Shown here: positions 29,710 to 59,284 of the stretch, in pieces
Layout: every line of letters starts with the position of its first letter
Position numbering within the stretch: the stretch's first letter is position 1
Assembly (NCBI GenBank): GCA_903813345.2
Contig: CAIIXF020000001.1
Location: 558,001-622,000, forward strand
Direction of reading: 5' to 3'
Length of the DNA: 64,000 nt
Source: Owenia fusiformis
Lineage: Eukaryota
Position numbers and translations under genes: made by a program
The notes under the pieces: model-generated
Database searches by the model: none
Told to the model about the DNA's origin: nothing
Seen by the model: only the letters and a program-made list of their open reading frames with translations

Positions 29710-29810
29710 ATGAAGTTGCTACAGATCGTTTTGATCATCTTCACTCAGCTGATTTTACTCTTTCACATGAGCAGAGCCAAGTGGAAGAATGGAACTAAAC
29801 CGACTACAAG
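29710..29810 (+). CDS. Gene 1 first coding exon, signal peptide [33 protein letters not shown](R)
   Basis: Acceptor tttcag ends at 29636, in-frame stop upstream of ATG 29710, hydrophobic signal-like N-terminus, donor AG|gtaagt, phase 2 matches next exon. Confidence 0.8.
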
Positions 29811-38800: not shown

Positions 38801-41800
38801 CATTATGTACAACTATAGTAAAGCGTTAAATGACTCCTAGTATCGTAAATTCTTTGACATTATAATTTATTAGATTATTAAACATTATGTTACAGCATGG
38901 GCTTTCAAGAGAAAGTAGACTAAAGGGTTAATCCATGTGGTTAGTGTGTATACATATAGTAACGCATTACCATATCAGCATATCAAACATATTGAATTGA
39001 GTAATATATTCTGACTTAAAAATACAATGCTTCCCATGACAGCACTTGTGAGTGTCTCGAATAAGAAATCCCAGTAGCCCAACGGTTGATGGTACCCAGT
39101 AATGTTGAAAAGTACTTAAATGGTGTTACCAAGTTAAATTGGGTTTATACATGTTTTCGTTTATAATTATAACTTTATTTTATTGCTATCTTATCCAGGA
39201 TTATTCCATTAATATATACCTGCGACAAAGCTGGAACGATCCAAGATTGCAATTTGAACCATTCAACGGCAAAGATAAACACATGATTAAAATGGAAGAT
39301 GGTACTTGGGATTTGATTTGGACTCCTGATGTGTTCTTCCGGTAAATATAGCCAAATAGACAGCATTGATATTGTAGTCTTGCAATGCTTTTCAGGGCTC
39401 TAACTAGGGTTCCATCACATATTTATCCGGGTATTGAAGAGATTCGTAAAACATTTCAATTTTACTTCCATTGGAGATCAAGAAAGCTTGTATGTGCAAT
39501 TTAAGAATAGAAATAGTATTGTAATGTCCTCAAAAATTACAATTGGAATCCGAAATTTGTTGTTTTCATGAATTACCTTTTATGTCACTTGTAAACGTCA
39601 CCTTTCAGCAATGAGAAGAAAGCAGAGTTCCACTATGTCACGATTCCAAACCGTCTTCTAAGACTTACTGACAATGGCGACATTTGGTATGCTTCCAAGT
39701 ACGTAATGAATAACATTATCATCAGCTTATTGAATTATATTATATTGATACTTTATGTTTGATCATCTTCATATTACAGATTAATAAAATGATATAATAA
39801 CATTATATAATAGCATCACTGCCTCTTGAAAAGTTACATTAAGAAAACAATTGGAATTTTCACAGTTTGGAAATTATCCTATGTATGTAAAACTATTTCC
39901 CTTAAAGTTCATAAATATCACTTTTGACCTTTTAGAATTACTGCAACACTGTCGTGTCCGATGGATTTACACAAATATCCTCTTGATGAACAGCGTTGCC
40001 CGATGATGTTCGAAAGTTGTACGTATAGAATTATTCTTTTATTTTCAACCACGAAGATATATCTCAGTCAATATTTTCTGATATGCTTACTCCTCGATTT
40101 ATTGTTATTAAACGCATTCTTGTTAATGTTTTTATAAGTTTTGTTTTGAATAATTATCCTGAGTATGTTTTAGTGACTTGTTAAGACTAATTTATTATAT
40201 TATATAGTTTGTACACAAATAAAGTATAAGATGAGCGATGGTAAACTCTGATACGAATTCGAATTACTAAACTTATAATAACATGGGTTAAGTTTTTCGG
40301 ACCCCTTAGTGAACGCAGTGGTATGGTCTTTACATTCTCACGGTGTCACAAGGTCTGATAAGCATTACTTTGCTAATCTTTATGTCAAATTATGTATAAG
40401 CCTGAATGTTTTAGAAATGGAGCCAGCCTGCCTTTTAATCGCTTCATCGAGGATTCACCTGTCAGCTCGAAGAATTTTCAGATCAAATACACATTTCTCT
40501 CTCCATTTGAGTTACCAATTTTCGATATATATTTATATGCATTGGGTAATCATACATTAATTCGACACCCACTTCAATATGACCATAAAACTAAGTATAC
40601 TTAATATCATTACATTAATGATTCTTATTCATTTGCAGTCGGCAATACCATGGATACCATGATTTACAAATGGCTTCCAGAGCCTGTGGTGCATGAAAAA
40701 AACCTCAATTTACCACAATATGTCTTACAAAAACATGTCTTAATAGATTGTTCACAAAATTATACAACAGGTAGAATGTATTTCAGCTTGCATGTTGACC
40801 CTTCGTATATGTGTATTGTCCACAACATTATACTCGTATATGTGTAGTGTCCACAACATTATACTCGTATATGTGTAGTGTCCACAACATTATACTCGTA
40901 TATGTGTAGTGTCCACAACATTATACTCGTATATGTGTAGTGTCCACAACATTATACTCGTATATGTGTAGTGTCCACAACATTATACTCGTATATGTGT
41001 AGTGTCCACAACATTATACTCGTATATGTGTTGTGTCCACAACATTATACTCGTATATGTGAAGTGTCCACAACATTATACTCGTATATGTGTAGTGTCC
41101 ACAACATTATACTCGTATATGTGTAGTGTCCACAACATTATACTCGTACACTCCCCTCCATAAGTTTGGCAACCTTTTTTCCCCCATTGAACTACGTGTT
41201 AAAGCCTCTTTACCTTTGAATTTTTATTTACTTAACCTGCGATGAAAATACTTATACTATTGATGGAAACTTAATTTGACTTTAATTCCAATACCTCCAA
41301 ATTTTCTCAATTTTTTTCCTCAATTACAATAGGTCGAAAATTGATGATGAATTTGATGAATTTTTGAAAATCGACATTCCCATGTAATCCAATGGGAAAT
41401 AGTAGGTTTGCCGCAAGTCATATGACAGAATATCCATCTATCCGAATCCTTGCAAAAAATACAATTTAGGCAGGTAATTGAATTTGCTAACTTTATTTAA
41501 CAAAAAATTGATATGTTCCTTCAGGTTCAACAAAGTTATAGGGCTTTAAAGTCAAAATTGTTTTTCAAAAAACCTCTCCCATTGAAATAACACAGGAGGC
41601 GAAAAATTATTTTCAAAAATGACTTTGAAGCGCTGTAACTTTAATATTCATCAAATAAACTAAACACTTAGTGTTCAAAAAGGTTAGACAATTCAATTTT
41701 CTATATACAAATATTTTTTGCTGAATCTTTTACTGAAAAGATATCCTGATTTCTGATTTGCCCCGAACCCTCAATTTCCCATTGGATTACATGGGAATGA

Positions 41801-44800
41801 CGATTTTCAAAAATTCATCAAATCTATCATCAATTTTCGACCTATTGTAATTGAGGAAAAAAATTGAGAAAATTTGGAGCTATTGGAAATAAAGTCAAGT
41901 TACGTTTCCATCAATATTATACGTTAATATATCGCCGGTTAAGTAAATAAAAATTCAAACGTAAAGAGGCTTTAACACGTAGTTCAATGGAGAAAAAAGG
42001 TTGCCAAACTTATGGAGGGTAGTGTATATGTGTAGTGTCCAACATTATACTCGTATATGTGTAGTGTCTACAACATTATACTCGTATATGTGTAGTGTCC
42101 ACAACATTATACTCGTATATGTGTAGTGTCCACAACATTATACTCGTATATGTGTAGTGTCCACAACATTATACTCGTATATGTGTAATGTCCACAACAT
42201 TATACCTTGAGTGGGTCACCATTCCGTATTAGTCGATACAATTGACCATTTAATGACAAATAGTGACTTTATCCTACGGAAACGAAGATGATGTTTCACA
42301 GACGGTTAGTAGTGATACTGTATTGCCCATGCTCTGGGTAAATAATTGTAATTTCCAGAGACAACAATTACATATCTGTGGATAGAAGAATGAAAGAACC
42401 TTAGGGTCCCAACCCCCTTCTTTTACTTTGCAAAAACGTTAAGAATGAGAAAAGTTATGAAACTCCAATAATCGAAACTAATGTCACTTGTTGGGACGGT
42501 ACTACACGAGCTGGGTAGGCCGGTGACCTTCGTTATATCTCTAAATGAACTATTTCAACAGTTTAAAAGATTCGATGCAAATTCACATGTTAATACGGAA
42601 TGTGTCAATAAAACTTGAACTCACCGGGTTGTTGGGACCCTAAGGCTTTTTCATTCTCACATCCATATATATGTCTTTGTTGGCTATATATAGTACAATC
42701 AATTTCCTAGAGCGTGTGCTAAACAGTATCGCCATCAGGTCCTCTTTTGAAAGACAATCTGCGTTTCTGAAGAATAAGATCAATTTTATTCCGTATTAAT
42801 GTACAAATAAACAAATCGAATGGAATGTTGACCCACACTAGATGATTTGCAATGTCGTAGATTCTACCCTCTATGTTCAACCACAAACAACAAACGTTTG
42901 TTCACTACGCTATTCTTTTTCACGCGTTTTACATTCAGTGGTCAAGTTTAAAATACGAACACTAGTCATTCGCAAATACAACTGCCGGTTCCAGATTCAC
43001 CAATTATTTTGGAAAATTAAACATGTCATTTTGAAGTTAAAATAACGGACAGCCCTATAGCTATCTGACAGTGATTATATGACTTTTTATTATGCCAATG
43101 TAAACATCGATTATGATAAATAAAGCCGCTCGGTTGAACTAGCGAACAGATCTTAAGTCACTGTTACAAACTTAAGTCAGTGTTCGTAGCTGCTTAGATA
43201 GGCAGATTAATCCGTCATCCAGGTCAGTGATAGTGTTTGACTCAATATCTTGTAGCTACTGGTATGTATTGCAGGTACCATTCGTTTATTCACCCGGCAG
43301 CCGGCAGTTGAACTCCTGAATGCTACCAGAGTTGGTAGATTCAACGTGATGTACACATGTATAGCTCAACAATAAAAAACAAGAAGAGGATTGAATGATG
43401 CTGAATATGACCGGACGTGTCAGATTTGACCATTCAATATTAAGTTCGCTAGAAGTTCGCGACGAAAGACAATGAGCCAATTTGCTTGAGTTTACAAATG
43501 AATATAGCCACGTGGTTACATTTAACAAATTGTTTGTTGGAAGACAGAGACAAGGGTCGTTGGGTAAAGAATTTGACTTTCAAACCACCTAACCTTTATT
43601 GCATGTCGAGTGATCGTTGCTAGAAGGCGCACGTATGTCACCATGTTTAATTTAGAATATTAGATTTAGAGGTCGCTTTCATTATTTAATGTTGACCGTG
43701 TTGTTTAGTTCACACCAAGGGTGCATTGCAAGGTCGCTTTAATTGTTAAATGTTGACCGTGTTGTTTAGTTCATACCAAGGGTGCATTGCAAGAATGCGT
43801 TAAGTTAGCTTCTAGTAATGCGCCTCTGGTACATGTCGTTGTATGAGAATAATAATGTCCGAAATGTCATTTTTGAAAAAATGAGATTTTCACAGATTTC
43901 CACTATTTAAATCATCCTCTTTCTTCTGCGATATCCCCTTATCTCCATCTCTTCTTAATATCCTGCTTTTCAGTGTCAAATTGTCCTCCATAAAGATTTC
44001 AAATATACATTTTTACTTTGTTCTATGTACCATTTTAACCAATCAAATTGTTTGAATTACACCATGTGCCTAGGAATTATTAAATTACAATTTTAAACTG
44101 AAATTTGAATTTATTTTTGAAAAAAATGAATACTGAAATTTGTTTAAGAAAATCTTAAAACTCATGAATGTTTTAGTGAATTTACACAAAATGATAAAAT
44201 CAATATACAAAATGACAGATAGATAGTATTGAAGTTACAAACGCCTAAACTTTTAAAAATTGATTTCCCAGCTTCATAAAAATGTGAGTTGGGACATTTT
44301 TATTCTCATACGGCGATGTTTCTGGATTTCGTCCGTTAAATAGATCACAGTACAAAGTTACAGTTGTTGCCTTATCAATATAAACTTTACGGACTATTTA
44401 ATCCACCATAAATACAAGACGTGGTATTTGGGTTCCCCGAATGGTATATTCGTGTCAATTTAGGAAACATGCAAACTAAAGCTTTGTGTGACATCAGTAT
44501 CATACATGTCACATACCATGGACCAAGACACGATACAGTTTTCTCATACGAAGGTCGAAATCACTTGTTCGTTGTTCTTGCACTGTTGCAAAATTACGTC
44601 ATATTGTTATCTCCCATAGCTTTACCCATATACAAGCTATTGTTGCTATATACTTAAGATCGCTTTTAATCAAGGAGCTCTCAGTTCTAATAAAAACTTA
44701 TTTTCATTTTAGGATTGTGGTGGTCGACCATAAAATGATTATATTTGAAAGGTGTATAACATATAGCGTTCGGGTTAAACATTCTTTTGAATTCATTATA

Positions 44801-47800
44801 GTTACATATCATTTATTACAGTTGGCCATACTATGGATACACTGGTTTATAAATGGCTTGATACTGAACCAGTTGCAAAAGAGCCGGGTTTGCAGTTGCC
44901 CCAATTTAATCTTAAAAAGTCATTATTACACGATTGTTCCCAAAACTACACGACAGGTCGGTAGGCATCCGCAAATGCATGCATGTTTATGTTATGATAA
45001 AATAGGTAAATAACCTACCTCACCCTACTATCACACCAAAGTAGTTCTCACTACGTTCTCGAAAACGGGCTTAAACTGTGCACGAACGGATTTGACGTAC
45101 TAAGAACCCACTACTTAAGTTAAGAACTTAGAGCATGCTCAAAAATTTCTGGTGATTGTCACATTCTGCAATCAGAACGAGTGACAACGTACTAGTGTCG
45201 TACTTCAATCCTACTAGGGACGTATTACGACGTTGTGTAGTGAGGCGTAAATTGCAGCCGTGAGTACCCCCAATTAGGAAAATAGGGGATTATAAATGTG
45301 TTCTGCACGGATTAGGGACACGGATGTTTACTATTTTAAAACGAGTTCAACCGTTTTTAAATTATGTGGATAATTCAGTAACATATTAGGACGTATTGAG
45401 AACGAGGTACAACTAATTGTCAACTGGTTTAAGCTGATTAAGGACGTAATTGAACTGCTTGGATACATTGTGTACACGAGACGAACGCACAATTTAACCC
45501 GATCTAAACTTGATACCAACGTACTGCAGACGGAATAAAGACGAGATGAACGTATTAAAAACTGCTTATGAACGAATTAACAAAAATAGCTATCACACCA
45601 GAACCAGTTGTCACTGCGTTGTTCAAAACGATGCCGAATCGGTTTTAAACTGTGTGCGAACTGAATGAACGTAGCTACAACATTCTACGGTCTGTTTACG
45701 AACTTCATGGACTTTCCCGAACGGGGAATGTGATTCAGAATTTTGAATCGATTCAATCGATTTATAATCAGGTCATGATGACCTTCTAGATTAGGGGACG
45801 CGTTATACGACGTTGCACACCGACGTGGCGCGACCTGAACGAACTGCGAATGAGATGGACGTATTGAAGACTGTTTATGAACGAAGTAGCTAATTATTTT
45901 AGACATATTTCCCGACCACAGCCATATTGAGCCCGTTTTACGACGTTTTTGTAGGACTGGCAAGAACGGGTAAGAACTAGTTTGGTGTGATAGGGGGGTA
46001 ACATACATTGTATACCCTTTAAACAATACAGAGTGTCGCATGCTGGCCTTACCTATTCAAAACAGCTTATTGAATTTTGTGGAAACCAAAGCAATGTACA
46101 CTCATCTAAATCTCATTATAAACACATTATGCAAATGATCTTATCCGTGGCCCTGGGTTTGTTTACATTACTGCGGAATTAAACTGATCGTGTCAGTAAA
46201 AATGGTGACCTTACCCTTCAAAAGTTCGGCGCGCGATATCACAGAGGCAAGTCTCTGGCCATAGGGAACTGATTGTACTTTGTAAACAATTGTAAACCTG
46301 TCAACAGAATAGTTAAAATTAGCGAAGTGACCTCTTTTGTTTACAATTGACAAAACGTAAAAATAGAAAACTTGTTACGAACTGAGCAGAGCAGTGCCGT
46401 TCCACCAGTTAAAGATGTTCAATCCAATGCCACGTACGTGCTACCACGGAATTGCCAACCTCCAGGGGTATCTTATGAATGAGCAATTCCGAAGTAACAC
46501 GTGGTCTTGCGTTGTATGCCTACAACTTTGTCTGGAGAAATATTACAAATGACACTTTCCAGCGCAGTTCGTGTAAAGCTATGTCGCCTTTTCTATTTTT
46601 TACGTTTTGGCGAATGTAAACAAATGAACTTGCTTGGCAAAGGCTTTACACTTACAATTGTTCTCTATTCAAAGTACTATAAATTCCAAGAGACTCGAAC
46701 TTTTGAAACATTTTCGTATGGAAAGGATCAGTTATGTTTCGTGGTAATCAAGATATACTGTTAACACTTCTCTAAGCTACACAACCGGCATTATAATGGC
46801 CTTTTTATACCCACCACCCATTTCCGTTCACTCGACTCCCGTTAGGTTACAGTAAAAAAATTTCGTTATATCCGTTCATTCGCCATATAAATAGTAAACA
46901 AAGCATTATATTTCAGGAAGACAGCATTTTGTTATGTAATCGATTGACGAGAGATTCGAAACCAAAACTGAATGCTCTTTTTTCGTACACAAGTCTCACT
47001 TATTCAGAATACTTGTATTTTATATATCGCGAATCATGATAGATAATGTTTTACTAGTCGGCAACATTTCATTATTTGAACGTCACATAGTGGTGATTTG
47101 TATAAATTGACTTTGTGATGTCAGTTTGCATACTGTAGTCTCCTTAATCAGTTTTTCTATTGTAGCAAAATAATTGTCAGTGACACAAACAGCAAAAACA
47201 ATTATGCATGTTGTTTGCTAATGTAATGGCTTACTGTTGTGTGATGTAATGATGTAAAATATGTTTATGATAAGAATAATCTGCAAAATGCACTCTATTT
47301 GAAATTTCGATAAGGAACATAATACAAAAGAACATTTCAAGAGGTCTCATAGTCAATTTATGAGTCATACATGTCTCATTATAGACTAAATGACGTCATT
47401 GTAATTGTTAGAATTGTATGCAAATAATGTTATTTTTACATGGTGCATTTTGTTGTTTATTGCTGTACGTTTTTATTTTTATTCGACTTTACCTGTTCTT
47501 GTGCACTGTTTTTAGTTGGACACACAATGGAAACATTGGTTTACAAATTTCTGCCGACTGCAGTGGATTACGAGGCATTAGATATATCAAATTTTATATA
47601 CAAAGGGGAAGCTTTGACTGATTGTTCTCAAAATTATTCAACAGGTATTTTCAAATTATTTCTTATTGCATCACCTCGATCTTGCTGAATGACGAAAATG
47701 ACAGTTTGTTTACGAAATACCATGTTTCCTGGTTGTTGTTTTTTTGTAACATTTTGAAAATTATACTTTCAAACAACAGACCTAGGCTAAAGCCTTTAAC

Positions 47801-48971
47801 ATAATGCCAGGAGTTTCACACTACAAACGGAAATCATAATCAAGGTGTATTGTAAGAATTCTACGTCATATCACACCACTTATGTGCATGTATTGTACTG
47901 TGTCTAAGTGTGCTTTTGCATGTTGTGTAATTTGTGAAATGTAGATCAGTTCGGTGTGAAAGTATATTATGAATTATTACTCCTTTATAAATATTATTTT
48001 AAGATATATGTACAGTAAAACTTAAGGAGGGGTGATGAAATAGCACAAAATGATACAGACAGATTAAATTCAAATGTTGCAATCAACTCCTTAAATAGTA
48101 GAAATTATCAGTGACCTAGTTCGTAAGAATAGCAGTTTAATCAAATATAAATTGATAAATAGAATAAAAATTATCACATTTTCTTGAAATAATACAACTG
48201 CAAATATTCAGCAACTAATATTAAAACATTCATGTACATTCCAGGTGCCTACCCATGCCTTCAAATCGATTTTATTCTCAAAAGGGACATTGGATACTAT
48301 ATGATCCAGCTCTATATACCCAGTGTTTTGATAGTTATTCTATCATGGGTAGCCTTCTGGATTAGCATTGATGCAATTCCAGCTCGTGTCACAATTGGAC
48401 TTCTTACAGTGCTTACAATGACGACACAGAGCACAGGAGCAAGATCTCAACTTCCAAGAGTATCTTATATCAAAGCCATAGACGTTTGGATGTCAACCTG
48501 CTTGTTGTTTGTGTTTGCTTCGTTACTTGAATTTGCTGTTGTAAATGTGTTTTCACGAAAGGAGGTCAAAACAAGGACAGCTGCAACTTTGAAGAGAAAA
48601 CGAAAAGAAGACGAGATGGCACTCGAACAGGTTTGTAAAACTATGCATGTTCTCTGACTAATACCTTACGAAGGTAATCGTTATTCGGAAAATGTTCTCA
48701 TCAATACATTTCATTACAAGTGATTAATATGATTATTATAAGATATGAACTAATATATAATATTTGGTATTCATTTCAGATAAATATAGTTACACACAAT
48801 GGAAGGGACTTCAAGGAAGTGAGAGAGAAAATAACCAAAACAAAATATATAAGAGACCCTGACGGAAGGCATAAAGCTAGAAGGATAGACAAAATTGCCC
48901 GAAAAGCTTTTCCTGGTGTTTTTGTAGCCTTCAATCTTATATACTGGGTAACATATAGCTTTTCAGAATGA
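29710..48971 (+). CDS. Gene 1 (spliced): glycine-receptor-like Cys-loop ligand-gated chloride channel subunit, 415-417 aa depending on cassette exon. Join 29710-29810, 37119-37177, 38249-38313, 39199-39341, 39609-39698, 39936-40018, [40639-40770 | 44822-44956 | 47516-47644], 48245-48630, 48780-48971
   Basis: All junctions are GT-AG and phases are consistent (1251 nt with cassette A). Contains signal peptide, loop D YLRQSW, loop [12 protein letters not shown], Cys-loop [15 protein letters not shown], loop C disulfide C...GAYPC, M1-M4, and the PAR motif before M2 (anion selective). Confidence 0.93.
31256..31829. mobile_element. Tc1/mariner-type MITE
   Basis: CAGGGGAGCCAAAAAGGTAAC / GTTACCATTTTGGCTCACCCTG-TA. 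Confidence 0.6.
32141..32466. mobile_element. EnSpm/CACTA-type MITE
   Basis: CACTCTTAAAAAT / ATTTTTAAGAGTG with 2-bp TSD TG; AT-rich internal ttactt repeats. Confidence 0.75.
33390..33926 (-). mobile_element. Older diverged H1 MITE copy, inverted
   Basis: Reverse-complement similarity to 17406-18197; ends GTTTGGTGTGATAGTAGGG. Confidence 0.75.
33930..34748 (+). mobile_element. H1 MITE copy
   Basis: Near-identical to 17406-18197; TTA flanks; 13-bp terminal duplication. Confidence 0.85.
37119..37177 (+). CDS. Gene 1 exon: (R)[19 protein letters not shown](G), N-terminal helix
   Basis: ttggcag acceptor, gtagtt donor; LL..Y....P pattern of Cys-loop receptor N-termini; phases 2/1 fit neighbours. 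Confidence 0.78.
37473..38110. mobile_element. Tc1/mariner-type foldback MITE (family T1), diverged copy
   Basis: TA-CACTACCCTCCAAAAGTTTGGCAACC...GGAGGGGGTG-TA; long internal inverted arms. Confidence 0.8.
38249..38313 (+). CDS. Gene 1 exon: (G)[21 protein letters not shown] (beta1)
   Basis: ttttatag acceptor, ATG|gtaaag donor; resembles the GlyR IFINSFGSI..TTM segment. Confidence 0.92.
38425..38748. mobile_element. Unclassified inverted-repeat element
   Basis: TGCCCGCGGTGCAAGT / ACTTGCGCCGCGGGCA arms. Confidence 0.55.
39199..39341 (+). CDS. Gene 1 exon: [17 protein letters not shown]...IWTPDVFF(R) (loops D and A)
   Basis: Within ORF 39139-39345; ccag acceptor, gtaaat donor; canonical WxDPRL and WxPD motifs. 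Confidence 0.95.
39609..39698 (+). CDS. Gene 1 exon: (R)[29 protein letters not shown](K) (loop E)
   Basis: tttcag acceptor, gtacgt donor; NEK..FH.VT..N.LLR...NG motif. Confidence 0.95.
39936..40018 (+). CDS. Gene 1 exon: (K)[27 protein letters not shown] (Cys-loop)
   Basis: ttttag acceptor, gtacgt donor; C-x13-C signature. Confidence 0.95.
40340..40355 (+). promoter_or_regulatory. Candidate splicing docking site ACGGTGTCACAAGGTC
   Basis: Complementary to related motifs at 44481-44498 and 47109-47125, and to local 40297-40313. Confidence 0.4.
40639..40770 (+). CDS. Gene 1 cassette exon A: (F)[43 protein letters not shown](G)
   Basis: 132 nt, phase 1-1, atttgcag acceptor, gtagaa donor, open frame. 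Confidence 0.92.
40804..42205. repeat. 31-bp minisatellite CGTATATGTGTAGTGTCCACAACATTATACT (~11 + ~6 copies) split by a T1 MITE
   Basis: Direct reading. Confidence 0.95.
41149..42024. mobile_element. T1 Tc1/mariner-type foldback MITE
   Basis: ~250-bp TIRs starting CACTCCCCTCCATAAGTTTGGCAACC; TA TSD confirmed by the interrupted minisatellite unit. Confidence 0.92.
42208..42840. mobile_element. Degenerate foldback MITE
   Basis: GTGGGTCACCATTCC / GGAATGTTGACCCAC outer arms; CCTTAGGGTCCCAAC / GTTGGGACCCTAAGG inner arms. Confidence 0.6.
43669..43792. repeat. ~62-bp direct tandem duplication
   Basis: aggtcgcttt...atgttgaccgtgttgtttagttca...ccaagggtgcattgca occurs twice. Confidence 0.9.
43832..44318. 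mobile_element. Unclassified TIR MITE
   Basis: GTATGAGAATAATAATGTCC / GGACATTTTTATTCTCATAC arms. Confidence 0.55.
44822..44956 (+). CDS. Gene 1 cassette exon B: (F)[44 protein letters not shown](G)
   Basis: 135 nt, phase 1-1, ttacag acceptor, gtcggt donor; not shown as such in the ORF track, translated by hand. Confidence 0.9.
45023..45998 (+). mobile_element. H1 MITE, longer variant, 66 nt downstream of cassette B
   Basis: Same TIRs and body as 17406-18197 with extra internal segments; flanks TCA/TAA. Confidence 0.82.
47516..47644 (+). CDS. Gene 1 cassette exon C: (F)[42 protein letters not shown](G)
   Basis: 129 nt, phase 1-1, tttttag acceptor, gtattt donor; within ORF 47440-47688. Confidence 0.87.
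48245..48630 (+). CDS. Gene 1 exon: end of loop C, beta10, M1-M3 and start of intracellular loop
   Basis: 386 nt; [10 protein letters not shown]...YIPS...SWVAFWI...[17 protein letters not shown]...[13 protein letters not shown]; ccag acceptor, gtttgt donor. Confidence 0.96.
48780..48971 (+). CDS. Gene 1 last coding exon: intracellular loop and M4, stop TGA
   Basis: tttcag acceptor; [24 protein letters not shown] is a typical M4 motif. Confidence 0.95.
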   Translation: MNIVTHNGRDFKEVREKITKTKYIRDPDGRHKARRIDKIARKAFPGVFVAFNLIYWVTYSFSE

Positions 48972-51900
48972 CACGATTCCAGGGTTTGGATATACATATT
49001 TGCTCTATAATGTGAATGAAACTATCATTTTGCATAGATGGATACCTTCTCAGTGAAGACTATGTAAATTATGCAGATTTTGTGATATCATTTTCTTGAT
49101 GAGCCACGTCAACTCCATTACAATTGTATAGTTATATTTATACTACTTGCTATGCTATAAGCTTATGGAAAAATCATCAAATACAGCACCACCCAAATCA
49201 TTAAGGTAAGAACTAATAGGTCGCAATAACATATCAAAATGCTTGAGTTGGTCTAGTTTAGTGCAAGTATTTTATGAATTGTGATATGATTTTATAACCG
49301 TGGATGGTCAAACTATTAGTCCATGGTATGAAATCTCTAGGACTTCTAATAAAGAAGCTGGTAGCATACTATGGCGCAGCGATATTTGACCTAATAATAA
49401 CATACCTTAACAATTTTTATTATAACCATTTAATGTACTTCCGGCTTTTAGGCTGAATTATGCCTGTCACTAGCAGAGGACAAAAAATTACCAAAAACTA
49501 AAATCAATACCCTAAATTATGTAATCCGTGCATCGGCGTTTTGTATGATTTCTCAGCCATTAATGTAGTAAATGTTACAAATGAATTACTTTGAATTCAT
49601 ATTAGAATGAGAAATGCTTAAATTATGCAAGTTTTTCACAAAATGGGTCTCGATATATTTTGATATATAGGCTGTTATTCCGCGGTGAACATTGTCAATA
49701 AAGGAGGGCCTCTTCTTTTTCCTTGACTAATTGCCACTCCTTCTAAAATTCTATTTCTTGTTGTTAGCTAGTGCTCAGTTGCTTATACAACAACCATCAA
49801 GACTTGGTCGAATTCATGAGTCAATGAGAAAAATCGCTAAATATCTTCCTAAAATCTGATGATATCCAGCGGTAAGGTCAAATAACCATCAGAAAATCTG
49901 ATGATAGCCAGCAGTAATGTCGAGGAATAATTGTAAGGCGTTCGATTGCATATGACTCTTACAGATTATTAGACATGCCCTTGGTATATATGAACATTCC
50001 AATACCTCTGTAACATTGAGTTGGATATAAATATTACATATTGTTATCGTCTTATGTATTATAAAACATGAACAATAACTTGTTATTTGACCCCTTGCGA
50101 TAATATGGATAAACTCTGGTAATAAAATGTTTTAAATGGTAAGAAAACTAACATGTTCGCAATCATAAATTACCTAAATATTCGACACACCTTTGTTGAA
50201 TCTGCTTTTCTTGTATTTGAAAAATCAAACAAAATCCGAAAAGTAGTGTAATTACACCAATTAAACACTGGCATTTTCAGTAAAATTATAGCAAATGTTT
50301 ACATTATGATAATCTAGTTTAGTGTCCATATACTTAAAATAACGGTCTGTGTCTTATGAAACTTCGAATCAAAATATTTACATTGATGAAAGACATTTTT
50401 CAAACCGAAAGGCGGAAGTTTTTTCAGCAAATGGTATTTAAAAAAATCAAGACATATGCACCTCCCTACATATTGCTTCAAATGTTGCTGCCCTATAGTG
50501 TGCTATGGATCATTTATATTTGGAAGTCATACCATAGACTATATCGTTCACATCAAATATGCATTAAATCACATTCTAAAAGTAAGATGGACTTAATTGT
50601 ATGTGTCATACTTCACTTATGTACAAATGTAAATGATATAAGATGTAAAAATCACCAACGATCATGTGCACATTGTTCACATTGACATATCATAACAATT
50701 AATTTGTAAATATGTTCATTTAGTATAAAAAGAGAGAAATGTGTGTATTACTAAAGAAACTTGAAAATGTAAAAATCATGTTCGATTCAAATTCGAAAGT
50801 AGTCTCTTTTTCAAATTAACTTCACTAGTTATGTTAATAAGCTTAGCTGCATCTATAATGTAACATGCCACTAGTCTATCAGTTACACTAACTTGTCTGC
50901 ACATGGGGACATTTTCTTACACCGTTCTATATCGTAATTTAGAAGTGAAGAATTGTCACGTGTTTATCGATTTTATGTTGCGGGAACACCATATTTAGTC
51001 GGCTCCACTCTTATACACATTCTTACTATTCATCCTATCGTCTCTATGTTTAATTGAGAAAAGACATATTGCTTTCGTTTATCTATTACGGTGCCATACT
51101 ACCAAGCGAAATTTAATAGGGATCAATATAGATGGCATATCATGCGTGAGTTGTTCTTCATCCTTGTCACATTATTTTTATGTTGATATTGATATTCAAA
51201 ATACATTACATTGATCTTTGACTAAGTTGATAATAATTCTTCTCGTTTCATAATCATTTTTCTAGATTTGCTAGATTTGATTAAATTAATTTTGGGCAAT
51301 GAATTGTATTTAGATGTTAAAAAATGCCATCTTTTGACGTCATCGAGGCCTTTAGGATAACCATATATAGAAAAGGTATCCTGACAAAGATCCGTTTTAA
51401 CGTTTTAACGAGGAATGAATGGCGTATTGTGCAGGTGGTTTAAATATGCTGTGCTACCGATTTCACCTTCCAATTCTACAACTTTACAGTCATACAAATA
51501 CTTAGTTATAAAGATACTTGGTATCATATATTGCTGATGTCATCAATGGAACTGCTAATAGACTTATTTCAGAATAATGATTTGAACAAATTGATAGCTG
51601 TATTTTGGTATTGTATCCTATAAAATCTTTATGTGAAATAAAAATGTAGCTATCAAGTTTAGTCTTAACTTTAGTTTTAGGCGTTCTGATAATCCAAAAT
51701 GTTTAAAATGTTATTCAAAACAAATTAGAAATATTTATAATTATTGTGTTTTCATTTCCCGAACATCGTAAAGTATTGCGACCTGTATTGGAATTAGGGT
51801 ATTGTATGTATTTCTCCAGTTCTTTACAAGTAAGGGCTTTGTAAGACTTTTCAAAAAAGTGTGTTGGTTTATGCTGAATTTAAGTAGTATAACCTTGAAA

Positions 51901-52252
51901 ATCATCGATGTACTTGTGATATACTTGTGATATACTTTTCCAGCTGTAAGTTATATGTGTTACTTGTGAAAATGTCTTTCATTACCATGAAGTTGTACCT
52001 GTAAGATACTCATGATCACTGATGACTTTAGCACACCCAGTTAAGTATTGTCGACTTCTTCCACAAACAAGAAAAACTGGAATATGATATAAGGGTTTTT
52101 ATTGTTTTAAATTAAATTAAATATTACCCACATCATATTTCAATTTTTGTTGCGTGATGGATTGAACTATTCTAGTGCTTACATGTAATTATGAAAAATA
52201 AAAAGCCTAAAGATATTATATTGTCTGTAATTTATAAATTTAAGCAAACTAA

Positions 52253-52540
52253 CCCGCCTATCACACCAATTCCGTTCTTTCTAGTCCTACAAAGATGTCG
52301 CAAAACGAGCTAAATATATATGACCGTGGTCGGGAAAATTATCTACTTCGTAGTAGGTCACCTCGTTTGAAGTACGTTGTTACACAATTGTTACACGATA
52401 TTGTTATCGAAATTTGAAATGGTTCAAAATTCTAAATCACACTCCCCTCTGAGCATGTCTATAAAGTCCAACCCGTTGGTACATAGTTCAAGCCCGTTTT
52501 TTGAGAAGGTAGTGAGAAATAGTTTGGTATTATAGTAGGG
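52253..52540 (-). mobile_element. Internally deleted H1 MITE
   Basis: Both degenerate TIRs present. Confidence 0.65.
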
Positions 52541-52981
52541 TTACATATAGCGTACATATGCGTGCCAATGCCCTAGAGGCATGGCAGACTTGTTGAAAAA
52601 GTAATACGATCATAAACTACGACAAATAAGTAAATAAGCATTCAACTCTACATTTATCAATGTCATGGTGATGTTCAGAAATTAAACAAGATTTGATATC
52701 GTTAAAACTGCGCATTTGTAAGCTTTCAAGAATTATTTCTACTTCAACTTTTGAGGACTGTTGACTTAACGCTACATCGATGCTCGTACTACTTAAGTCA
52801 TCACTTTAGAACTAAAAATCTGCTTCCTTCCTCTCCCAATGTCAATTTCTATTTCTTTCAACGCATCTTCAAATGCGATATTATGGTGTATTTTGTTGAA
52901 TGCATGATAACGAACGAAAAATGTCTACATAGTTTAGTCAATCATGAACGAAATGGACGTACATTGGTCCAGTCATTTAAA

Positions 52982-53530
52982 CCCCTATCACACCAAACTA
53001 ATTCTCAACCGTCCTAATACAAAAAGTCGTAAAACGGGTTTAGTCTGGGTGTAGTCGGGAAATAGTACTTCAATTTACGCCCGGCTACACAACGTGGTAA
53101 TACGTCCCGAGTAGGATTGAAGTACGACAGTTCCGTTTAAGAGAACGTCCAATTCGTCTTATGTACGTTATCACTCGTCCTAAAATGCATCAACGTTTGT
53201 AAATAGACCCCAAACAGTTCTAAGTACGTCGAATCCGTTCGTACATAGCTTGAGCCTGTTTTAGATAACGTAGTGGGAACTAGTTTGGTGGAACACCCTA
53301 CTATCACAACGTCACAATTTTCTGATGGTCATCGCGTTCTGCAATTAGAGCGGAGGGCAACGCACTTAAGACGACCTGAAGGTACTACGAACGGAACTGT
53401 CGTACTTCAAACCAAGTAGAGATGTTTTTAGAAAGTGATAAATTGTCCGAGGACGTATTTTGAACAAGATAGAACTGATTGCAAACGGGTTTCATACTAG
53501 TTGGCACTGCGTTCTTCAAAAGGTTTCCGA
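52982..53530. mobile_element. Two degenerate H1 MITE pieces, head-to-head (minus 52982-53290, plus 53297-53530)
   Basis: Similarity to the H1 body on opposite strands on either side of ~53293. Confidence 0.6.
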
Positions 53531-54699
53531 ACTGGCTTTAGATATATGTGCATATATCCATATAATATATAAATATATTTTCACAGCATTGTGGAGGTCA
53601 TTACTAAACCACCGCACCAATGCCCCATCCTATACATCTGCTCTTATCAAAACCACGATTACTAATGACCTTCAGATGGAACAACTCATCCATGCTGCCT
53701 ATTAATCAGATGAGGCGATTTGTGATTTTGGTGTGTTCAAACCGATGACGGACAAGATGAGAGGATTCAGATATGCGACCTTTACAGACCTCCACAATGG
53801 CGTAAAAATGCCCTGAGGAAACGTTTTCTCGATGGGTTCAGATCCATGTTCCACGAATGGGTTCAACGCTAGAACAATTGTATCAAAACCACGAAAACTA
53901 TTTTGAGCATTTTAATTGAAACATGTGTTACCATAGTAACCATATTTTTAGTCCAATGAGAGTAAAGTGCATAAAATTTGTTACACCAATTGCTTAATCC
54001 ATTTTACATATTCTGTGAAAATTTCAAATAAAAATCCACAAAACTTTTGATTTAAATAGATTTTTCTCAGAACTTATTGATCGACCTGGTATATCGCAGA
54101 ATTTAACTGTTTAGTGAGTAGGGTTATGCGTAGTTGAGGGGCATTGGAAAGTGGTGGAGATTTAAGAAGTATAATGCGAAAAAGATCAATTTTTGACGTA
54201 TTCCTGAGATCAAATCCATCTCATTTTGACGCAATAAAAGCTGCCGAAAAGAATAATCTAAAGACATCATAAAGATATACATAGCTAATTGTCATTCAAA
54301 AAACCAAAGAGTTTGAGCCATTTACTTCATTTTGATCAGGTCATATAGATGGCTCATTTGAGCAATAGAGGTAATGATTATTGAATACGGCCGTAGTAAT
54401 AAAATAACCTTAACCCCAAAATGCCTGAGTATGCCAGACCAATCCTAAAAAGTTAAATGTTTACCTCATCCTCGACTCATCTCACAAAACACACACAACA
54501 TGGCATAATAGTTTCTGTTGAGTACTTGGTCTTGGAGCTAGTCTAGCCATGTGCAATGTCAACGGTACTAATAAAGTATGTCCCTTTAGTCCATTTAAAT
54601 TTCTAATTTTGATTTTTCTCAATGTTAACATAACGAGGAAAGAGAAAACTGCATGTCAATAAAAAATCAAAGTGATCACTTAGGCTATACCCCTTTCGG

Positions 54700-55485
54700 G
54701 CATTTGAAAGTTAATGTTACACTTTTCATATGCTTGTTGGCATTTGGAGGTTAATGTCATAATTTTGATATGCTTGTTCGCATTTGAAGTTTAATGTTAC
54801 AATTTCCATATGCTTGTTCGCATTTGAAGTTTAATTTTACAATTTCCATATGCTTGTTCGCATTTGAAGTTTAATGTTACAATTTCCATATGCTTGTTCG
54901 CATTTGGGGTTTAATGTAACAGTATCCATATGCTTCTTGGTATTTGAAGGTTAATGTTACAATTTTCATATGCTTGTTCGCATTTGACGATTAATGTCAC
55001 AATTCCACATGCTTGTTGGCATTTGGTGTTTAATGTAACATTATCCATATGCTTCTTGGTATTTGAAGTTTAATGTTACACTTTTCATATGCTTCTTGGC
55101 ATTTGAAGTTTAATGTTACACTTTTCATATGCTTCTTGGTATTTGCAATTCAATGACACTATTTCCATATGCTTCTTGGCATTTGAAGGTTAATGTTACA
55201 ATTTTCATATGCTTCTGAGCATTTGTTTAATGTCACAATTTTTATATGCTTCTTGGTATTTGAAGTTTAATGTTACACTTTTCATATGCTTCTTGGCATT
55301 TGAAGTTTAATGTTACACTTTTCATATGCTTCTTGGTATTTGCAATTCAATGACACTATTTCCATATGCTTCTTGGTATTTGAAGGTTAATGTCATAATT
55401 TGCATATGCTTCTTGGCATTTGAAGTTAATGTCACAATTTTCATATGCTTCTTGGTATTTGAATTTTAATGTTACACTTTTTATA
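54700..55485. repeat. 40-bp minisatellite GCATTTGAAGTTTAATGTTACAATTTCCATATGCTTGTTC, ~20 copies
   Basis: Direct reading. Confidence 0.95.
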
Positions 55486-55593
55486 AGCTCGTTGAAGAAT
55501 TGAATTGAATAAAAAATAAATGAATAAATAAAGAAATATAGGGTAATCGTACAGGTACAAGTCGGACTACACTTTCAACCAACCCATGCTCCC

Positions 55594-55802
55594 CATGTCT
55601 TGGACGATAGGGTCACAAAACCTCCACATGTCCGAATTAGATCTTCCTCAATTTTGCTTTGATCCATAGTTGTACCCTACAAGGATCTACAGTCTACTTG
55701 CTTCCCATCTCCAAGAATCCTTGTAGGGTACAACAATGGATCAAAGCAAAATTGAGGAAAATCTGATTTGGACATAAGGGGTGTCCCAATCCGTCGAGAA
55801 TG
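55594..55802. repeat. Foldback inverted repeat, probable small MITE
   Basis: ~43-bp near-perfect arms at 55644-55686 and 55717-55760. Confidence 0.75.
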
Positions 55803-56278
55803 CAAGACCATGATGAATATTTAAAAAACACATAATATAAGATCCATGAACAGGATTCATCACACGGTCTTGTGTGGAGCCGGTGTAAAAGGGTAGGTGG
55901 TCCTATCAAATTTTGGCTCTATTCTCTATTGTTTTTTTATGGTGACCTAATTACAATTATTTTCCCTATTATTTATACACAATCAGGGCCAGTAAGGACC
56001 GTAAAGAAAGGGGACCATAATCCCCAGGGACCATAATTTCCTTTACACCGGTATTCCCAAACCTTTAGAGGGGTGTATTTCTGTGTATGTTTGATGAGGT
56101 TTTGGTATACATTGCGTGGTTACTCATTAAAATAACACTGTAATAGTCGAACACAATCGTGGGTTTATTCAGTAATAAATTGAGCTTAAAATGTAATGAT
56201 GGTGCAAACGTGTGTTTCACAGTATGTTACATTATGACGCAATATTATATTTTAATAAAATAGTACAAACATAGAGTG

Positions 56279-56458
56279 TCATGCAAACTTGTATGTGAGC
56301 CAGTATATCAAATTAAAAAGAACAAATGATAAGGGAAACATCTTTCTTGCTAGTTTATCAATATATCTGGCTCTATTCCTCCCTTCTCCATCACGAACAA
56401 ATGGTCGTTTCTCTTTGACTTCTTTAAAGTCCCTTCCATTCCGAGTGACTACTTTAAT
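56279..56458 (-). CDS. Gene 2 last coding exon with M4
   Basis: ttttccag acceptor; [14 protein letters not shown]...[18 protein letters not shown] on the minus strand at 56164-56169. Confidence 0.95.
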   Translation of the reverse strand: MKVVTRNGRDFKEVKEKRPFVRDGEGRNRARYIDKLARKMFPLSFVLFNLIYWLTYKFA

Positions 56459-59107
56459 CTGGAAAATAGTATTTAAACACATTGAGTCAAAATAAGGAGG
56501 TTATACATCGGGAGATGTACAAATTGTTTAAATTTATACAAAGGGATCCGATGATTTTTCCGAGTTTGACGGATATATCACTCTGAATGAAGATTCCAAT
56601 ATACAATCCAGACCTTTTTATATCATAGATGATATTAAAAAATAATGATAAGTTATCAAAACTCAAACACTATTAAACGTCTTTAGGAGGCAAGTATGCA
56701 GAATATATAAGTACATGGAATATAACAAAATAGTAATCGTATTTATCAAAGTGATTTGCTTTATATAATTTATATTACAGCGACCATGGTATGGGAGAAA
56801 AAAAGGAGGATGACATAATGATCACATTCTCCATAATAAGTTTGGCAACAGGGGGACTCGATTTGCTCACCTATCGAAGCATACACTCCCCTCCATAAGT
56901 TTGGCAACCTTTTTTCCACCATTGAACTACGTGTTAAAGCCTCTTTACCTTTGAATTTTTATTTACTTAACCTGCGATGAAAATACTTATACTATTGATG
57001 GAAACGTAATTTGACTTTAATTCCAATACCTCAAAATTTTCTTAATTTTTTTCCTCAATTACAATAGGTCGAAAATTGATGATTAATTTGATGAATTTTT
57101 AAAAATCGACATTCCCATGTTAACCAATGAGAAATGGTAGGTTTGCCGCAAGTCATATGACAGAATATCCATCCATCCGAGTCCTTGCAAAAAATACGAG
57201 TTAGGCAGGCAATTGAATTTACTAACTTTATTTAACAAAAAAATGATATGTTTCTTCAGGTTCAACAAAGTTATAGGGCTTTAAAGTCAAAATTGTTTTT
57301 CAAAAAACCTCTCCCATTGAAATAACACAGGAGGCGAAAAATTATTTTCAAAAATGACTTTGAAGCGCTGTAACTTTAATATTCATCAAATAAACTAAAC
57401 ACTTAGTGTTCAAAAAAGTTAGACAATTCAATTTTCTATATAAAAATATTTTTTGCTGAATCTTTTACTGAAAATATATCCTGATTTCTGATTTGCCCCG
57501 AACCCTCCATTTCCCATTGGATAACATGGGAATGACGATTTTCAAAAATTCATCAAATTATCATCAATTTTCGACCTATTGTAATTGAGGAAAAAATTGA
57601 GAAATTTGGAGGTATTGGAAATAAAGTCAAGTTACGTTTCCATCAATAGTTTAGATTATTTCATCGCCGGTTAAGTAAATAAAAATGCAAACGTAAAGAG
57701 GCTTTAACACGTAGTTCAATGGGGAAAAAAGGTTGCCAAACTTATGGAGGAGAGTGTATGCTAATAAATGTCCAAACTATCAGGAACAGAATTGAGATTT
57801 AATTATTCACAGATTTTAATAATTTAATTATTCACAGGCTTTTTTAAGTGATAAGATGAGAACCTCCGGTTACCAAACTTAATGAGGGGAGTGTAGCTGT
57901 TTACCTGCTCAATCGTCACATGCTCTTCCTTTAACTTCCTGTTCCCATTAAGTGTCCTATTTCTCCTCATTTCCTTTCTTGAAAATACATTAACAACAGC
58001 AAATTCTAAAAGGGACGCAAACACAAATAATAAACACGTTGACATCCAAACGTCTATGGCTTTAATATAAGATACTCTTGGAAGTTGAGATCTTGCTCCT
58101 GTGCTCTGTGTTGTCATTGTAAGCACTGTAAGAAGTCCAATTGTGACACGAGCTGGAATTGCATCAATGCTAATCCAGAAGGCTACCCATGATAGAATTA
58201 CTATCAAAACACTGGGTATATAGAGCTGGATAAGATAGTATCCTATGTCTCTCTTGAGTATAAAATCGATCTGTAGGCATGGGTAAGCACCTGGAACACG
58301 ACATAACGGGGGTAAAAGTCAATATACAAATCCATTTTAAAATCATAAGCGCAGGAAATGTTTACGTTTTGATGAGTTAAATCTTCTAAGTGAACAATTG
58401 ATAAGTTTATCATATACAGTCATTCACTTGGTTTAACCATTAATGATCCAAATCTTAAAATGTGTTCTGCAATTTATATTTTAAAACATTCATACAAACA
58501 CTGTATAGCACAATACTCCACAGTCAGACATAATACATTTTCCCACGAAATTGAACAGCAAACACGCCATATTGGTTATTGATTGCCACCAATACTCGTT
58601 TTTTCCCGAACAAAAACCTACCTGTGGTATAGTTTTGAAGACAATCCATCAATTTATTACCTACATATCGGTATTGTGGCAGTTCAAGATTGGAATCACC
58701 AGCGACTGGCTTAGGTTGTAACCATTTGTAATGCAATGTTTCCATTGTATTGCCAACTAAAATCATATAATTATCAGCCCTCTTGAACGAGGCGTCCTAC
58801 CATGTGAACATCATGCAGTTCCATGGTCCAATTTGGATGAACTATAACGTTTATGTTTTCATTCACTGTCCAAATTGGGCCAAGTTCATTGATGTCGTGT
58901 TTAGACCACCATACAGCATAGTTTTACAGTGGTCTAAATCAGGACATGAGGTGGTCACCTGGTTTTTACCTGTGCTGTAGTTCTGTCTGCATGTTTGCAA
59001 TTCATAGCCGACGTATCTGAATTGAGGTAATTCTGGTTCCTGCCCCATATCTAATGGTTGTGGGTCTGTTAGCCATTTAAAGTTAACAGCATCCAACGTG
59101 TTTCCGA
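56279..59107 (-). CDS. Gene 2 (partial, 5' exons beyond window): paralogous GlyR-like chloride channel subunit. Join complement of [59107-58970 | 58756-58622], 58290-57905, 56458-56279
   Basis: Same exon structure as gene 1, including a 386-nt TM exon; GT-AG sites; PAR motif; M4 [23 protein letters not shown]. Confidence 0.92.
56884..57756. mobile_element. T1 Tc1/mariner-type foldback MITE in the last intron of gene 2
   Basis: Very similar to 41149-42024; TA flanks. Confidence 0.92.
57905..58290 (-). CDS. Gene 2 exon: end of loop C, M1-M3
   Basis: 386 nt, ttccag acceptor, CAG|gtaaac donor; protein nearly identical to gene 1 through M3. Confidence 0.96.
58622..58756 (-). CDS. Gene 2 cassette exon Y: (F)[44 protein letters not shown](G)
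   Basis: 135 nt, phase 1-1, ttttag acceptor, gtaggt donor (minus strand). Confidence 0.9.
58970..59107 (-). CDS. Gene 2 cassette exon X: (F)[45 protein letters not shown](G)
   Basis: 138 nt, phase 1-1, atttgcag acceptor, gtaaaa donor (minus strand). Confidence 0.9.
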
Positions 59108-59284
59108 CTGCAAATACAATTTTGGTGGGGTATTTATACCTCCGAAGGGACACGGCGCGAGAGCAGCAGAAGCGGCAACAAGTGAATTGCAAATTGCTAA
59201 GCGTAGCTCTCGATGGCCGTGATTTGTAGATCAAACCGCAACAATATTGATATGAAATAGGGTATTATATTGAATCAGAAGAAC

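Follow-up and report, generated by a model that had tools for sequence, protein, structure and literature searches.

Within the 64-kb window (the whole stretch of DNA analysed here), the annelid Owenia fusiformis carries two paralogous genes, gene A (+ strand) and gene B (− strand), which are convergently oriented and whose eighth exons are nearly identical over 194 nt and clearly diverged on either side of it. Why should two genes that differ at most synonymous sites agree so closely in one short stretch of one exon? We judge it likely that this stretch was produced by interlocus (non-allelic) gene conversion, in a single event or recurrently, between old convergent paralogs.

Two convergent genes for predicted anion-channel subunits

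Genes A and B are predicted to encode GlyR/GluCl-like Cys-loop ligand-gated anion channel subunits. A domain search detects PF02931 (Neur_chan_LBD; E = 2.4e-46 and 2.6e-45) and PF02932 (Neur_chan_memb; E = 3.8e-38 and 6.2e-38) in the proteins P0022 and P0038, the closest solved relative is GlyR alpha-2 (E = 3.9e-110), and the translation of exon 8 contains, ahead of M2, the PAR motif, which is tied to anion selectivity. In a protein tree, A and B, whose amino-acid identity is 70% across 405 columns, are mutual closest relatives (SH-aLRT 97; terminal branch lengths 0.25 and 0.30) and form a lineage-specific pair of sister paralogs. Protein comparison shows that the M1–M3 block is nearly invariant in annelids and nemerteans. 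At the DNA level, the comparison within Owenia covers copies A and B, the Owenia paralogs P0058, P0081 and P0088 lying outside it.

In gene A (+ strand), tblastn places exons 1–6 at 29710–29811, 37117–37179, 38248–38313, ~39133–39342, 39604–39699 and 39934–40017; their counterparts in gene B (− strand) lie past the end of the window. Both genes possess clusters of alternative versions of exon 7, coding for loops F and C. Those of gene A are exon 7a (~40635–40769; tblastn with P0022 residues 180–233, 85%, the match overrunning the exon end), exon 7b (~44812–44955; tblastn with P0023 residues 178–225, 94%) and exon 7c (47516–47644; tblastn, splice sites set by eye), which codes for the remainder of loop B and for loops F and C and is the gene A cassette closest to exon 8. 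Those of gene B are exon 7b (~58614–58754; tblastn with P0038, 96%) and exon 7a (~58968–59111; tblastn with P0037, 96%).

Exon 8, which codes for pre-M1, M1–M3 and the beginning of the M3–M4 loop, is 386 nt long in both genes. In gene A it occupies 48245–48630, with an acceptor AG at 48243–48244, a donor GT at 48631 and a 100% match to P0022 and P0023; in gene B it occupies 57905–58290 and matches P0037–P0039. A distance of ~9.5 kb separates the two copies, which are on opposite strands; the window contains no third one. Exon 9, located by tblastn, follows at 48780–48971 in gene A (end of the M3–M4 loop, M4 and the stop codon) and at 56279–56458 on the − strand in gene B (M4 and the stop codon), so that intron 8 measures 149 nt in gene A and 1446 nt in gene B.

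Synonymous identity is confined to one tract of exon 8

Global alignment of the two exon 8 copies, 48245–48630 (+) against 58290–57905 (−), confirms the count given in a first-pass annotation of this DNA: 48304–48497 in copy A and the reverse complement of 58038–58231 in copy B (− strand) match at 191 of 194 nt. All three differences, at 48336 (GTT/GTA), 48423 (ACG/ACA) and 48471 (ATC/ATT), are synonymous, and the tract is bounded by A/B differences at 48303 and 48498. It codes for most of M1, for M2 and for the opening residues of M3, together with the loops between them, of which the M1–M2 loop contains the PAR motif; transmembrane segments were assigned by alignment to GlyR alpha-2 and from the known GlyR topology.

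The flanks are markedly different. The 59 exon nt immediately upstream (48245–48303) carry 9 differences, the same number as reported earlier; 7 are synonymous single changes and 2 fall in one nonsynonymous codon (48301–48303, ATG/CTT, M/L), making the upstream protein almost, not fully, identical. Downstream, the synonymous divergence previously noted in M3 is borne out, with 12 of the 23 codons in 48496–48564 differing, at 14 nt, while the protein is identical. Expressed as synonymous differences per site, the tract has 3/47 (dS 0.067), as against 7/11.3 in the upstream flank and 14/16 in the downstream flank. Nucleotide identity of the flanks is 80–84%, and an independent repeat search returns a 325-nt inverted pair, 48239–48563 and 57972–58296, with 92% identity.

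Only the tract is young. In exon 9, A and B have the same residue in 38 of 60 aligned codons, with synonymous differences at 22 of 22.7 sites, i.e. saturated; similarity between the genes ends 6 nt inside the upstream intron; and the lengths of intron 8 are unequal. These three observations together point to an old duplication with a young tract inside it. Among degenerate codons that encode the same residue in both copies (n = 100), 3/59 differ in the tract and 19/41 in the flanks (Fisher p = 1.1e-6), and every other comparable part of the two genes is saturated at synonymous sites, in agreement with the earlier claim that synonymous identity here exceeds what protein constraint explains. Since the contrast is with flanks whose protein is itself nearly or fully identical, it favours conversion over constraint on the protein.

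Distant homologs do not share the codons of the tract

Copy A was compared with homologous loci from metagenome contigs; of 80 such loci, 74 aligned without gaps and supplied 61 unique exons, all of them distant homologs. At tract codons with the same residue, third-position identity of copy A to these homologs is 0.26, approximately chance, as opposed to 56/59 between A and B. The first-pass annotation had allowed that the same nucleotides might be kept in distant species; they are not, and a deep RNA-level constraint on the tract is thereby refuted. Synonymous difference in the tract between copy A and the 61 homologs averages 1.03 (minimum 0.77), the flanks being similar, and the synonymous profile per 8 codons across 49 non-redundant homologs is flat (0.38–0.63), with no trough over the tract. 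Furthermore, the tract/flank ratio of pS is 0.08 for A/B, as compared with a median of 0.88 and a minimum of 0.29 in 1702 homolog pairs with flank pS > 0.4. Synonymous sites are saturated relative to these outgroups, so that the donor copy, and with it the direction of conversion, is not inferable from them. A signal of GC-biased conversion is absent, as GC3 is 0.30–0.33 in the tract, not above that of the flanks (0.22–0.47).

These data bear most directly on the proposal that synonymous sites are under selection in the Owenia lineage itself, an RNA-level function of M1–M2 (for instance a structure needed for editing, enhancers of splicing, or pauses in translation that allow membrane insertion) having retained ancestral codons in both copies. 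The median ratio of 0.88 accords with this proposal, since it means that homolog pairs in general diverge slightly less at synonymous sites within the tract region than outside it, and so do localised runs without synonymous change but with amino-acid changes in the M1 region of some unrelated pairs. In one such pair (L016/L044), 0/26 synonymous differences in the run stand against 26/54 (4/5000 permutations as extreme), and nonsynonymous differences are scattered within the run, a pattern closer to local constraint on synonymous sites than to conversion. The predicted fold of the tract is also slightly more stable than that of shuffles (z = −1.57). However, this excess is not significant, 11/200 shuffles being equally stable, and an Rfam search of the window gave no match. 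Two marks expected of an exon constrained by RNA editing or structure are thus lacking, cross-species synonymous conservation being absent and the fold not significant. Against the chance-level third positions and the flat exon profile, selection would need to constrain ~44/47 synonymous sites in a single lineage, and we regard this proposal as unlikely.

Read-derived contigs support two junctions of the tract

If the assembly or its polishing had gone wrong, with reads of one copy 'correcting' the other or with a local collapse, the true tracts could be as diverged as the flanks. The tract is short, roughly of read size, and sits within a paralogous exon; in addition, among the pieces listed, no long one links 48336 and 48423 to the flanks, leaving the centre of the tract phased to them by none. 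Two of the junctions between tract and flank are supported by read-derived sequence, in the first place by contigs of the DNA run X1, whose reads may derive from the same sample as the assembly. One contig (48441–49341) ties the A-specific letter at 48471 to the A flank, reproducing the junction 48471–48498, and a second spans 58202–59200. Both contigs end 30 nt from the closest copy-specific letter. Given Logan's word length of 31, they break exactly at the onset of the 31-letter words common to both copies (48441 and 58202), as would fit two copies with identical runs in common. Across 48212–48542, no alternative letters are listed in X1, though SNPs are listed nearby.

Separately, a marine metatranscriptome contig (X20), with a 134-nt insert on 57999–58132 and 4 other letters, reads from a B-type M3 flank into the tract for 95 nt. 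Its tally of change types includes A>G and T>C, at one place each, as would be expected if 58064 and 58112 had the letters of copy A in this fragment. In the raw RNA runs X22 and X24, depth is zero on exons 7–9 of gene A and ≤0.2 on exons 7–9 of gene B (exon 8 at most 0.19). Wholesale overwriting is further opposed by the three remaining differences within the tract, and flanks of 80–84% identity would allow 150-nt reads to be mapped uniquely. An artefact is very unlikely on this evidence.

Clustering of the differences exceeds that in permutations and in other pairs

A maximal chi-square scan of the A/B exon 8 alignment gives 28.0, a value matched by 0/2000 and 0/5000 permutations in two runs and ranking top among 1714 scanned pairs (A, B and the 61 homologs). 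Codon choice within the tract is varied, with 3 codons used for Ile and 4 each for Val, Ser and Leu, so codon bias offers no explanation for the A/B identity. That the run of unchanged synonymous sites is due to a local cold spot of mutation, to biased codon usage or simply to chance is scarcely credible even in a comparison limited to two sequences and one exon, given these permutations, this rank, the varied codons and the absence of a cold spot at this place in the homologs.

Discussion

Ectopic conversion between inverted paralogs, as the first-pass annotation had proposed, is the best-supported account of the tract. Three elements expected of a conversion tract are found together: linked paralogs, a local excess of similarity that includes synonymous sites, and freedom from constraint common to distant homologs. 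The functional gloss attached to the proposal, that conversion keeps the pore and the M2–M3 loop constant while the ligand-loop exons diversify, is unsupported. M3 is identical and pre-M1 is one residue off, yet neither is homogenised. Since the protein of pre-M1 (19 codons, with M/L the only change) and of M3 (23 codons) has been kept despite synonymous saturation, purifying selection suffices, and conversion is unneeded for a constant pore.

We infer the repair mechanism, as well as the neutrality, the recurrence and the role of orientation considered below. In the likely course of events, a break within exon 8 of one copy was mended by a non-crossover route, of which synthesis-dependent strand annealing is the probable one, with exon 8 of the other copy, ~9.5 kb off and inverted, serving as template. 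Some 200 nt, at most 48304–48497, would have been overwritten; three substitutions may have been gained later, or the patch may have been slightly mosaic from the start. As the longest stretch of invariant protein, M1–M2 would have the highest nucleotide similarity in the family and would be the likeliest site for a heteroduplex. Repeated events could then keep M1–M2 evolving in concert, as an 'island' between flanks that escape. An identity of 80–84% in the flanks counts against this account, being low for a new conversion to begin, and a history of recurrent events must therefore be assumed. It is plausible that the inverted arrangement aided conversion. Most likely, homogenisation arises neutrally, from the proximity of the copies together with strong constraint on the protein, and is not a device for preserving the pore.

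A broader reading would make the M1–M2 pore module a recurrent island of homogenisation among subunit paralogs, either since repeated conversion is favoured in subunits that co-assemble or through an unrecognised RNA-level need of M1–M2. It is hinted at by localised synonymous-poor runs in three homolog pairs, L016/L044 (above), L029/L034 (5/33 versus 39/59 synonymous; 0/5000 permutations as extreme) and L007/L077 (1/5000 permutations as extreme); we consider it improbable. As a further speculation along this line, transcripts reading through the convergent pair would form a hairpin paired at 191 of 194 positions.

For gene A and gene B themselves, several consequences follow from the tract. 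The dS of the pore exon would badly misdate the A/B duplication, and trees of lophotrochozoan GlyR/GluCl-like genes built from the M1–M3 exon can mislead. Primers and short-read mapping designed for A or B cross-react within the tract. More generally, the most conserved module of the channel is the place where paralogs can still swap sequence, and the patch offers a textbook-clean example of short conversion within otherwise saturated paralogs.

With vertebrate GlyR alpha and invertebrate GluCl, the Owenia genes have in common the LBD and membrane domains and the PAR motif; they differ in having clusters of alternative exon 7 (loops F and C) and in forming a lineage-specific A/B pair. Concerted evolution of near inverted duplicates is known from the arms of Y-chromosome palindromes and from the inverted hsp70 pairs of Drosophila. 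As is proposed for the Owenia pair, the template for repair in these cases is an inverted copy a few kb away on the same chromosome, an arrangement in which a crossover would invert, not delete, the spacer. There, homogenisation extends over entire arms or genes, non-coding sequence included, whereas in Owenia it is limited to ~194 nt of one exon, the introns, the remainder of exon 8 and exon 9 being saturated.

A narrow literature search found no published report of the A/B tract, and in one source that mentions Cys-loop receptors the term 'gene conversion' occurs only in a CRISPR reference (PMC8841521). A close parallel is provided by non-allelic conversion between channel paralogs and duplicated exons in Taricha newts, namely Nav1.1/1.3 and Nav1.4 exons 26a/26b (PMC8476164). 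The newt genes encode voltage-gated Na channels and the Owenia genes belong to the pentameric ligand-gated anion channel family. In the newts, conversion spread amino-acid changes conferring toxin resistance, and a species tree served to date it (PMC8476164), whereas the Owenia tract is identical in protein, so that nothing adaptive moved, and is known from one genome. By analogy with the newt sodium channels, a pore mutation, e.g. of the resistance type, could in principle pass between subunits (PMC8476164). In both systems, tracts are short (tens to hundreds of bp), lie in conserved pore-region exons of linked paralogs and are detected as a local excess of similarity over diverged flanks, and the length and same-chromosome proximity of the Owenia tract are consistent with the non-allelic conversion described there (PMC8476164). 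The Owenia tract is a clean but ordinary case of a well-known process and calls for no new mechanism.

Structure of the two genes

Mapping of predicted proteins onto the window (tblastn) places the near-identical tract in exon 8 of two convergent, tail-to-tail genes, A and B, whose proteins contain Neur_chan_LBD and Neur_chan_memb domains and have human glycine receptor (GlyR) alpha-2 as their best solved relative (E = 3.9e-110). The window derives from the annelid Owenia fusiformis: the translated exon at 48247–48630 is 100% identical to two predicted proteins (P0022 and P0023) of that species, and the inverted copy matches three further predicted proteins (P0037–P0039). On the + strand, gene A comprises exons 1–6 (29710–40017), three alternative exon-7 cassettes (about 40635–40769, 44812–44955 and 47516–47644), exon 8 (48245–48630) and exon 9 (48780–48971). 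On the − strand, gene B has exons 1–6 past the window end, two exon-7 cassettes (about 59111–58968 and 58754–58614), exon 8 (58290–57905) and exon 9 (56458–56279); of the five cassettes, four are placed by their tblastn matches. By alignment with GlyR alpha-2 and the usual GlyR topology, the tract starts within M1, most of which it covers, and runs through the M1–M2 loop (containing the PAR motif), M2 and the M2–M3 loop into the beginning of M3.

Within the ligand-binding site, the clustered exon-7 cassettes supply loops F and C and what remains of loop B. The predicted P0022, P0037 and P0038 isoforms carry a single cassette each; the tandem pairs in P0023 and P0039 probably reflect mutually exclusive splicing that was misannotated. 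In both genes the cassette closest to exon 8 starts with V-G, hinting that the exon duplication is older than the gene duplication. In addition, 31129–31191 (+), in the first intron of gene A, encodes a 21-residue match (67%) to residues 50–70 of the B protein, equivalent to the gene A exon at 37117–37179; it may be a second version of exon 2, either an alternative exon or a relic.

MITE-like elements with terminal inverted repeats of about 260 nt (86–88% complementary) sit in the gene A intron between cassettes 7a and 7b (41135–42038) and in intron 8 of gene B (56878–57767). A summed contig depth of about 1,000,000 in the DNA run X1, together with raw RNA reads, indicates a very high-copy, transcribed repeat. 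High-copy repeats also fill most of the space between the two 3′ ends (48976–50551, 52128–54491 and 55674–56067), with X1 depths of hundreds to 233,000, compared with about 50–100 for unique sequence, and with RNA reads on both strands. Two ORFs are probably transposon remnants: 61306–63006 (+), in a gene B intron (566 aa; a weak zinc-knuckle match below the Pfam cutoff), and 6945–7676 (−) (243 aa; a match to zf-RVT, a reverse-transcriptase-associated domain). A third ORF, at 13457–14281 (+), is repetitive, 274 aa long, and has matches of pentapeptide-like type.

Clustering of synonymous differences in exon 8

The 386-nt exons 8 of A and B align gap-free. As the first-pass annotation had reported, 48304–48497 matches the reverse complement of 58038–58231 at 191 of 194 positions, all three differences (48336, 48423 and 48471) being synonymous. 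The 59 nt upstream differ at nine positions, seven synonymous and the other two in one M/L codon (48301–48303), and downstream 12 of 23 codons differ (14 nt) despite identical protein. Synonymous differences per site are 7/11.3 upstream, 3/47 in the tract (dS 0.067) and 14/16 downstream, and degenerate same-residue codons differ at 3/59 in the tract versus 19/41 in the flanks (Fisher p = 1.1e-6). No permutation reaches the maximal chi-square of 28.0, either in a set of 2000 or in one of 5000; the observation is thus confirmed and far beyond chance.

The A/B score is the highest among 1714 pairs scanned. A few other homolog pairs, drawn from metagenome loci and not necessarily from one organism, have local stretches nearly without synonymous change in diverged exons: L029/L034 (differing codons 5/33 in the stretch versus 39/59 in the rest; score reached in 0/5000 permutations), L007/L077 (13/56 versus 22/28; 1/5000) and L016/L044 (0/26 versus 26/54; 4/5000). 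Conversion fits L016/L044 less well, since amino-acid differences are scattered inside its low stretch. Together, these pairs allow, with low probability, for a family-wide phenomenon at the M1–M2 coding region.

Age of the duplication and of the tract

Exon 9 is synonymously saturated between A and B: its 38 same-residue codons hold 22 synonymous differences in 22.7 sites. Similarity stops 6 nt into the upstream intron, and intron 8, 149 nt long in A, reaches 1446 nt in B, where it contains MITE-like repeats. A tree built from 28 family members groups A and B as sisters (SH-aLRT 97); they are 70% identical over 405 columns, and their end branches (0.25 and 0.30) resemble in length those of their nearest relatives, which come from Ridgeia and Dimorphilus. 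The duplication is therefore old and lineage-specific, in contrast to the young 194-nt tract, the sole recent part. Tract divergence is 6.4% per synonymous site, several-fold above the roughly 0.8% between X1 contigs and the window (43 differences over roughly 5150 nt, among pieces listed), so the last conversion event probably predates current polymorphism. By a rough estimate, it would be younger than the duplication by at least an order of magnitude.

Alternative explanations for the tract

Sequence constraint confined to the Owenia lineage is a less probable source of such a tract; the homologs in our comparison are distant relatives.

An assembly or polishing artefact that made the two copies alike in the tract is improbable. 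We compared four sequencing runs with 47400–59200, the results coming from the few pieces listed among about 30,000. X1, which may be the assembly's own sample, has contigs spanning 48441–49341 and 58202–59200, the former placing the letter specific to A at 48471 on one piece with A's flank. The distance from the end of each contig to the closest letter that tells the copies apart is 30 nt, as would be expected where two real copies sharing identical runs break a graph of, presumably, 31-letter words. Between 48212 and 48542, X1 has no other letters among those listed, with SNPs listed on either side. Moreover, a 134-nt insert from the marine metatranscriptome run X20 on 57999–58132 (97%, four other letters) bridges B's M3 flank and 95 nt of the tract; the tract centre is unphased among the listed pieces. 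The same insert is evidence of transcription in the field, either of gene B itself or of its counterpart in a close relative; in two raw-read RNA runs, depth is zero on A exons and almost none on B exons.

Deep RNA-level constraint is ruled out by distant homologs, among which third positions are chance-like and the profile flat. One scan of metagenome contigs gave 80 loci with exon homologs (74 gap-free, 61 unique). Against these 61, the synonymous difference of copy A averages 1.03 in the tract (lowest value 0.77), which matches the flanks. Third positions of same-residue codons agree with copy A at a rate of 0.26 within the tract, 0.32 upstream of it and 0.22 downstream, compared with 56/59 between A and B in the tract. 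Across 49 non-redundant homologs, the share of same-residue codons that differ lies between 0.38 and 0.63 in each bin of eight codons and does not dip over the tract. The tract/flank ratio has a median of 0.88 and a minimum of 0.29 in 1702 homolog pairs with diverged flanks; for A/B it is 0.08. The tract nucleotides are thus unconserved among distant relatives; conservation of this kind was what the first-pass annotation had named as refuting its proposal, and the conversion reading stands. The predicted fold of the tract is unexceptional (z = −1.57, equalled by 11/200 shuffles; whole exon z = −1.41), and Rfam has no matches in the window.

Codon bias is rejected, because tract codons are diverse (three for Ile and four each for Val, Ser and Leu).

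Probable gene conversion and conservation of the pore

Ectopic gene conversion is thus upheld as the best explanation, given the synonymous contrast and the weakness of its rivals, probably as non-crossover repair of one exon 8 templated by the other. The repair patch would be at most 194 nt, limited by 48303 and 48498. GC3 shows no excess in the tract over the flanks. Since the flanks are now only 80–84% identical, one new event between sequences this diverged would not be expected; more likely, conversion would have recurred, maintaining similarity in the best-conserved core as the flanks diverged too far to take part.

The further proposal that conversion keeps the pore constant is not borne out: M3 is identical in protein and the pre-M1 segment is one residue off, with both flanks synonymously saturated. 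Annelid and nemertean relatives show hardly any variation in the whole M1–M3 block, indicating that purifying selection alone holds the pore constant. Conversion is better regarded as resulting from pore conservation than as producing it.

In a narrow search of literature combining gene conversion and Cys-loop, such a tract is not apparent. Non-allelic conversion between linked paralogs is already well described, and the A/B tract is a new instance of this known process. A close analogue comes from newt sodium channels, where pore-loop exons are converted between paralogs and between duplicated exons (PMC8476164).
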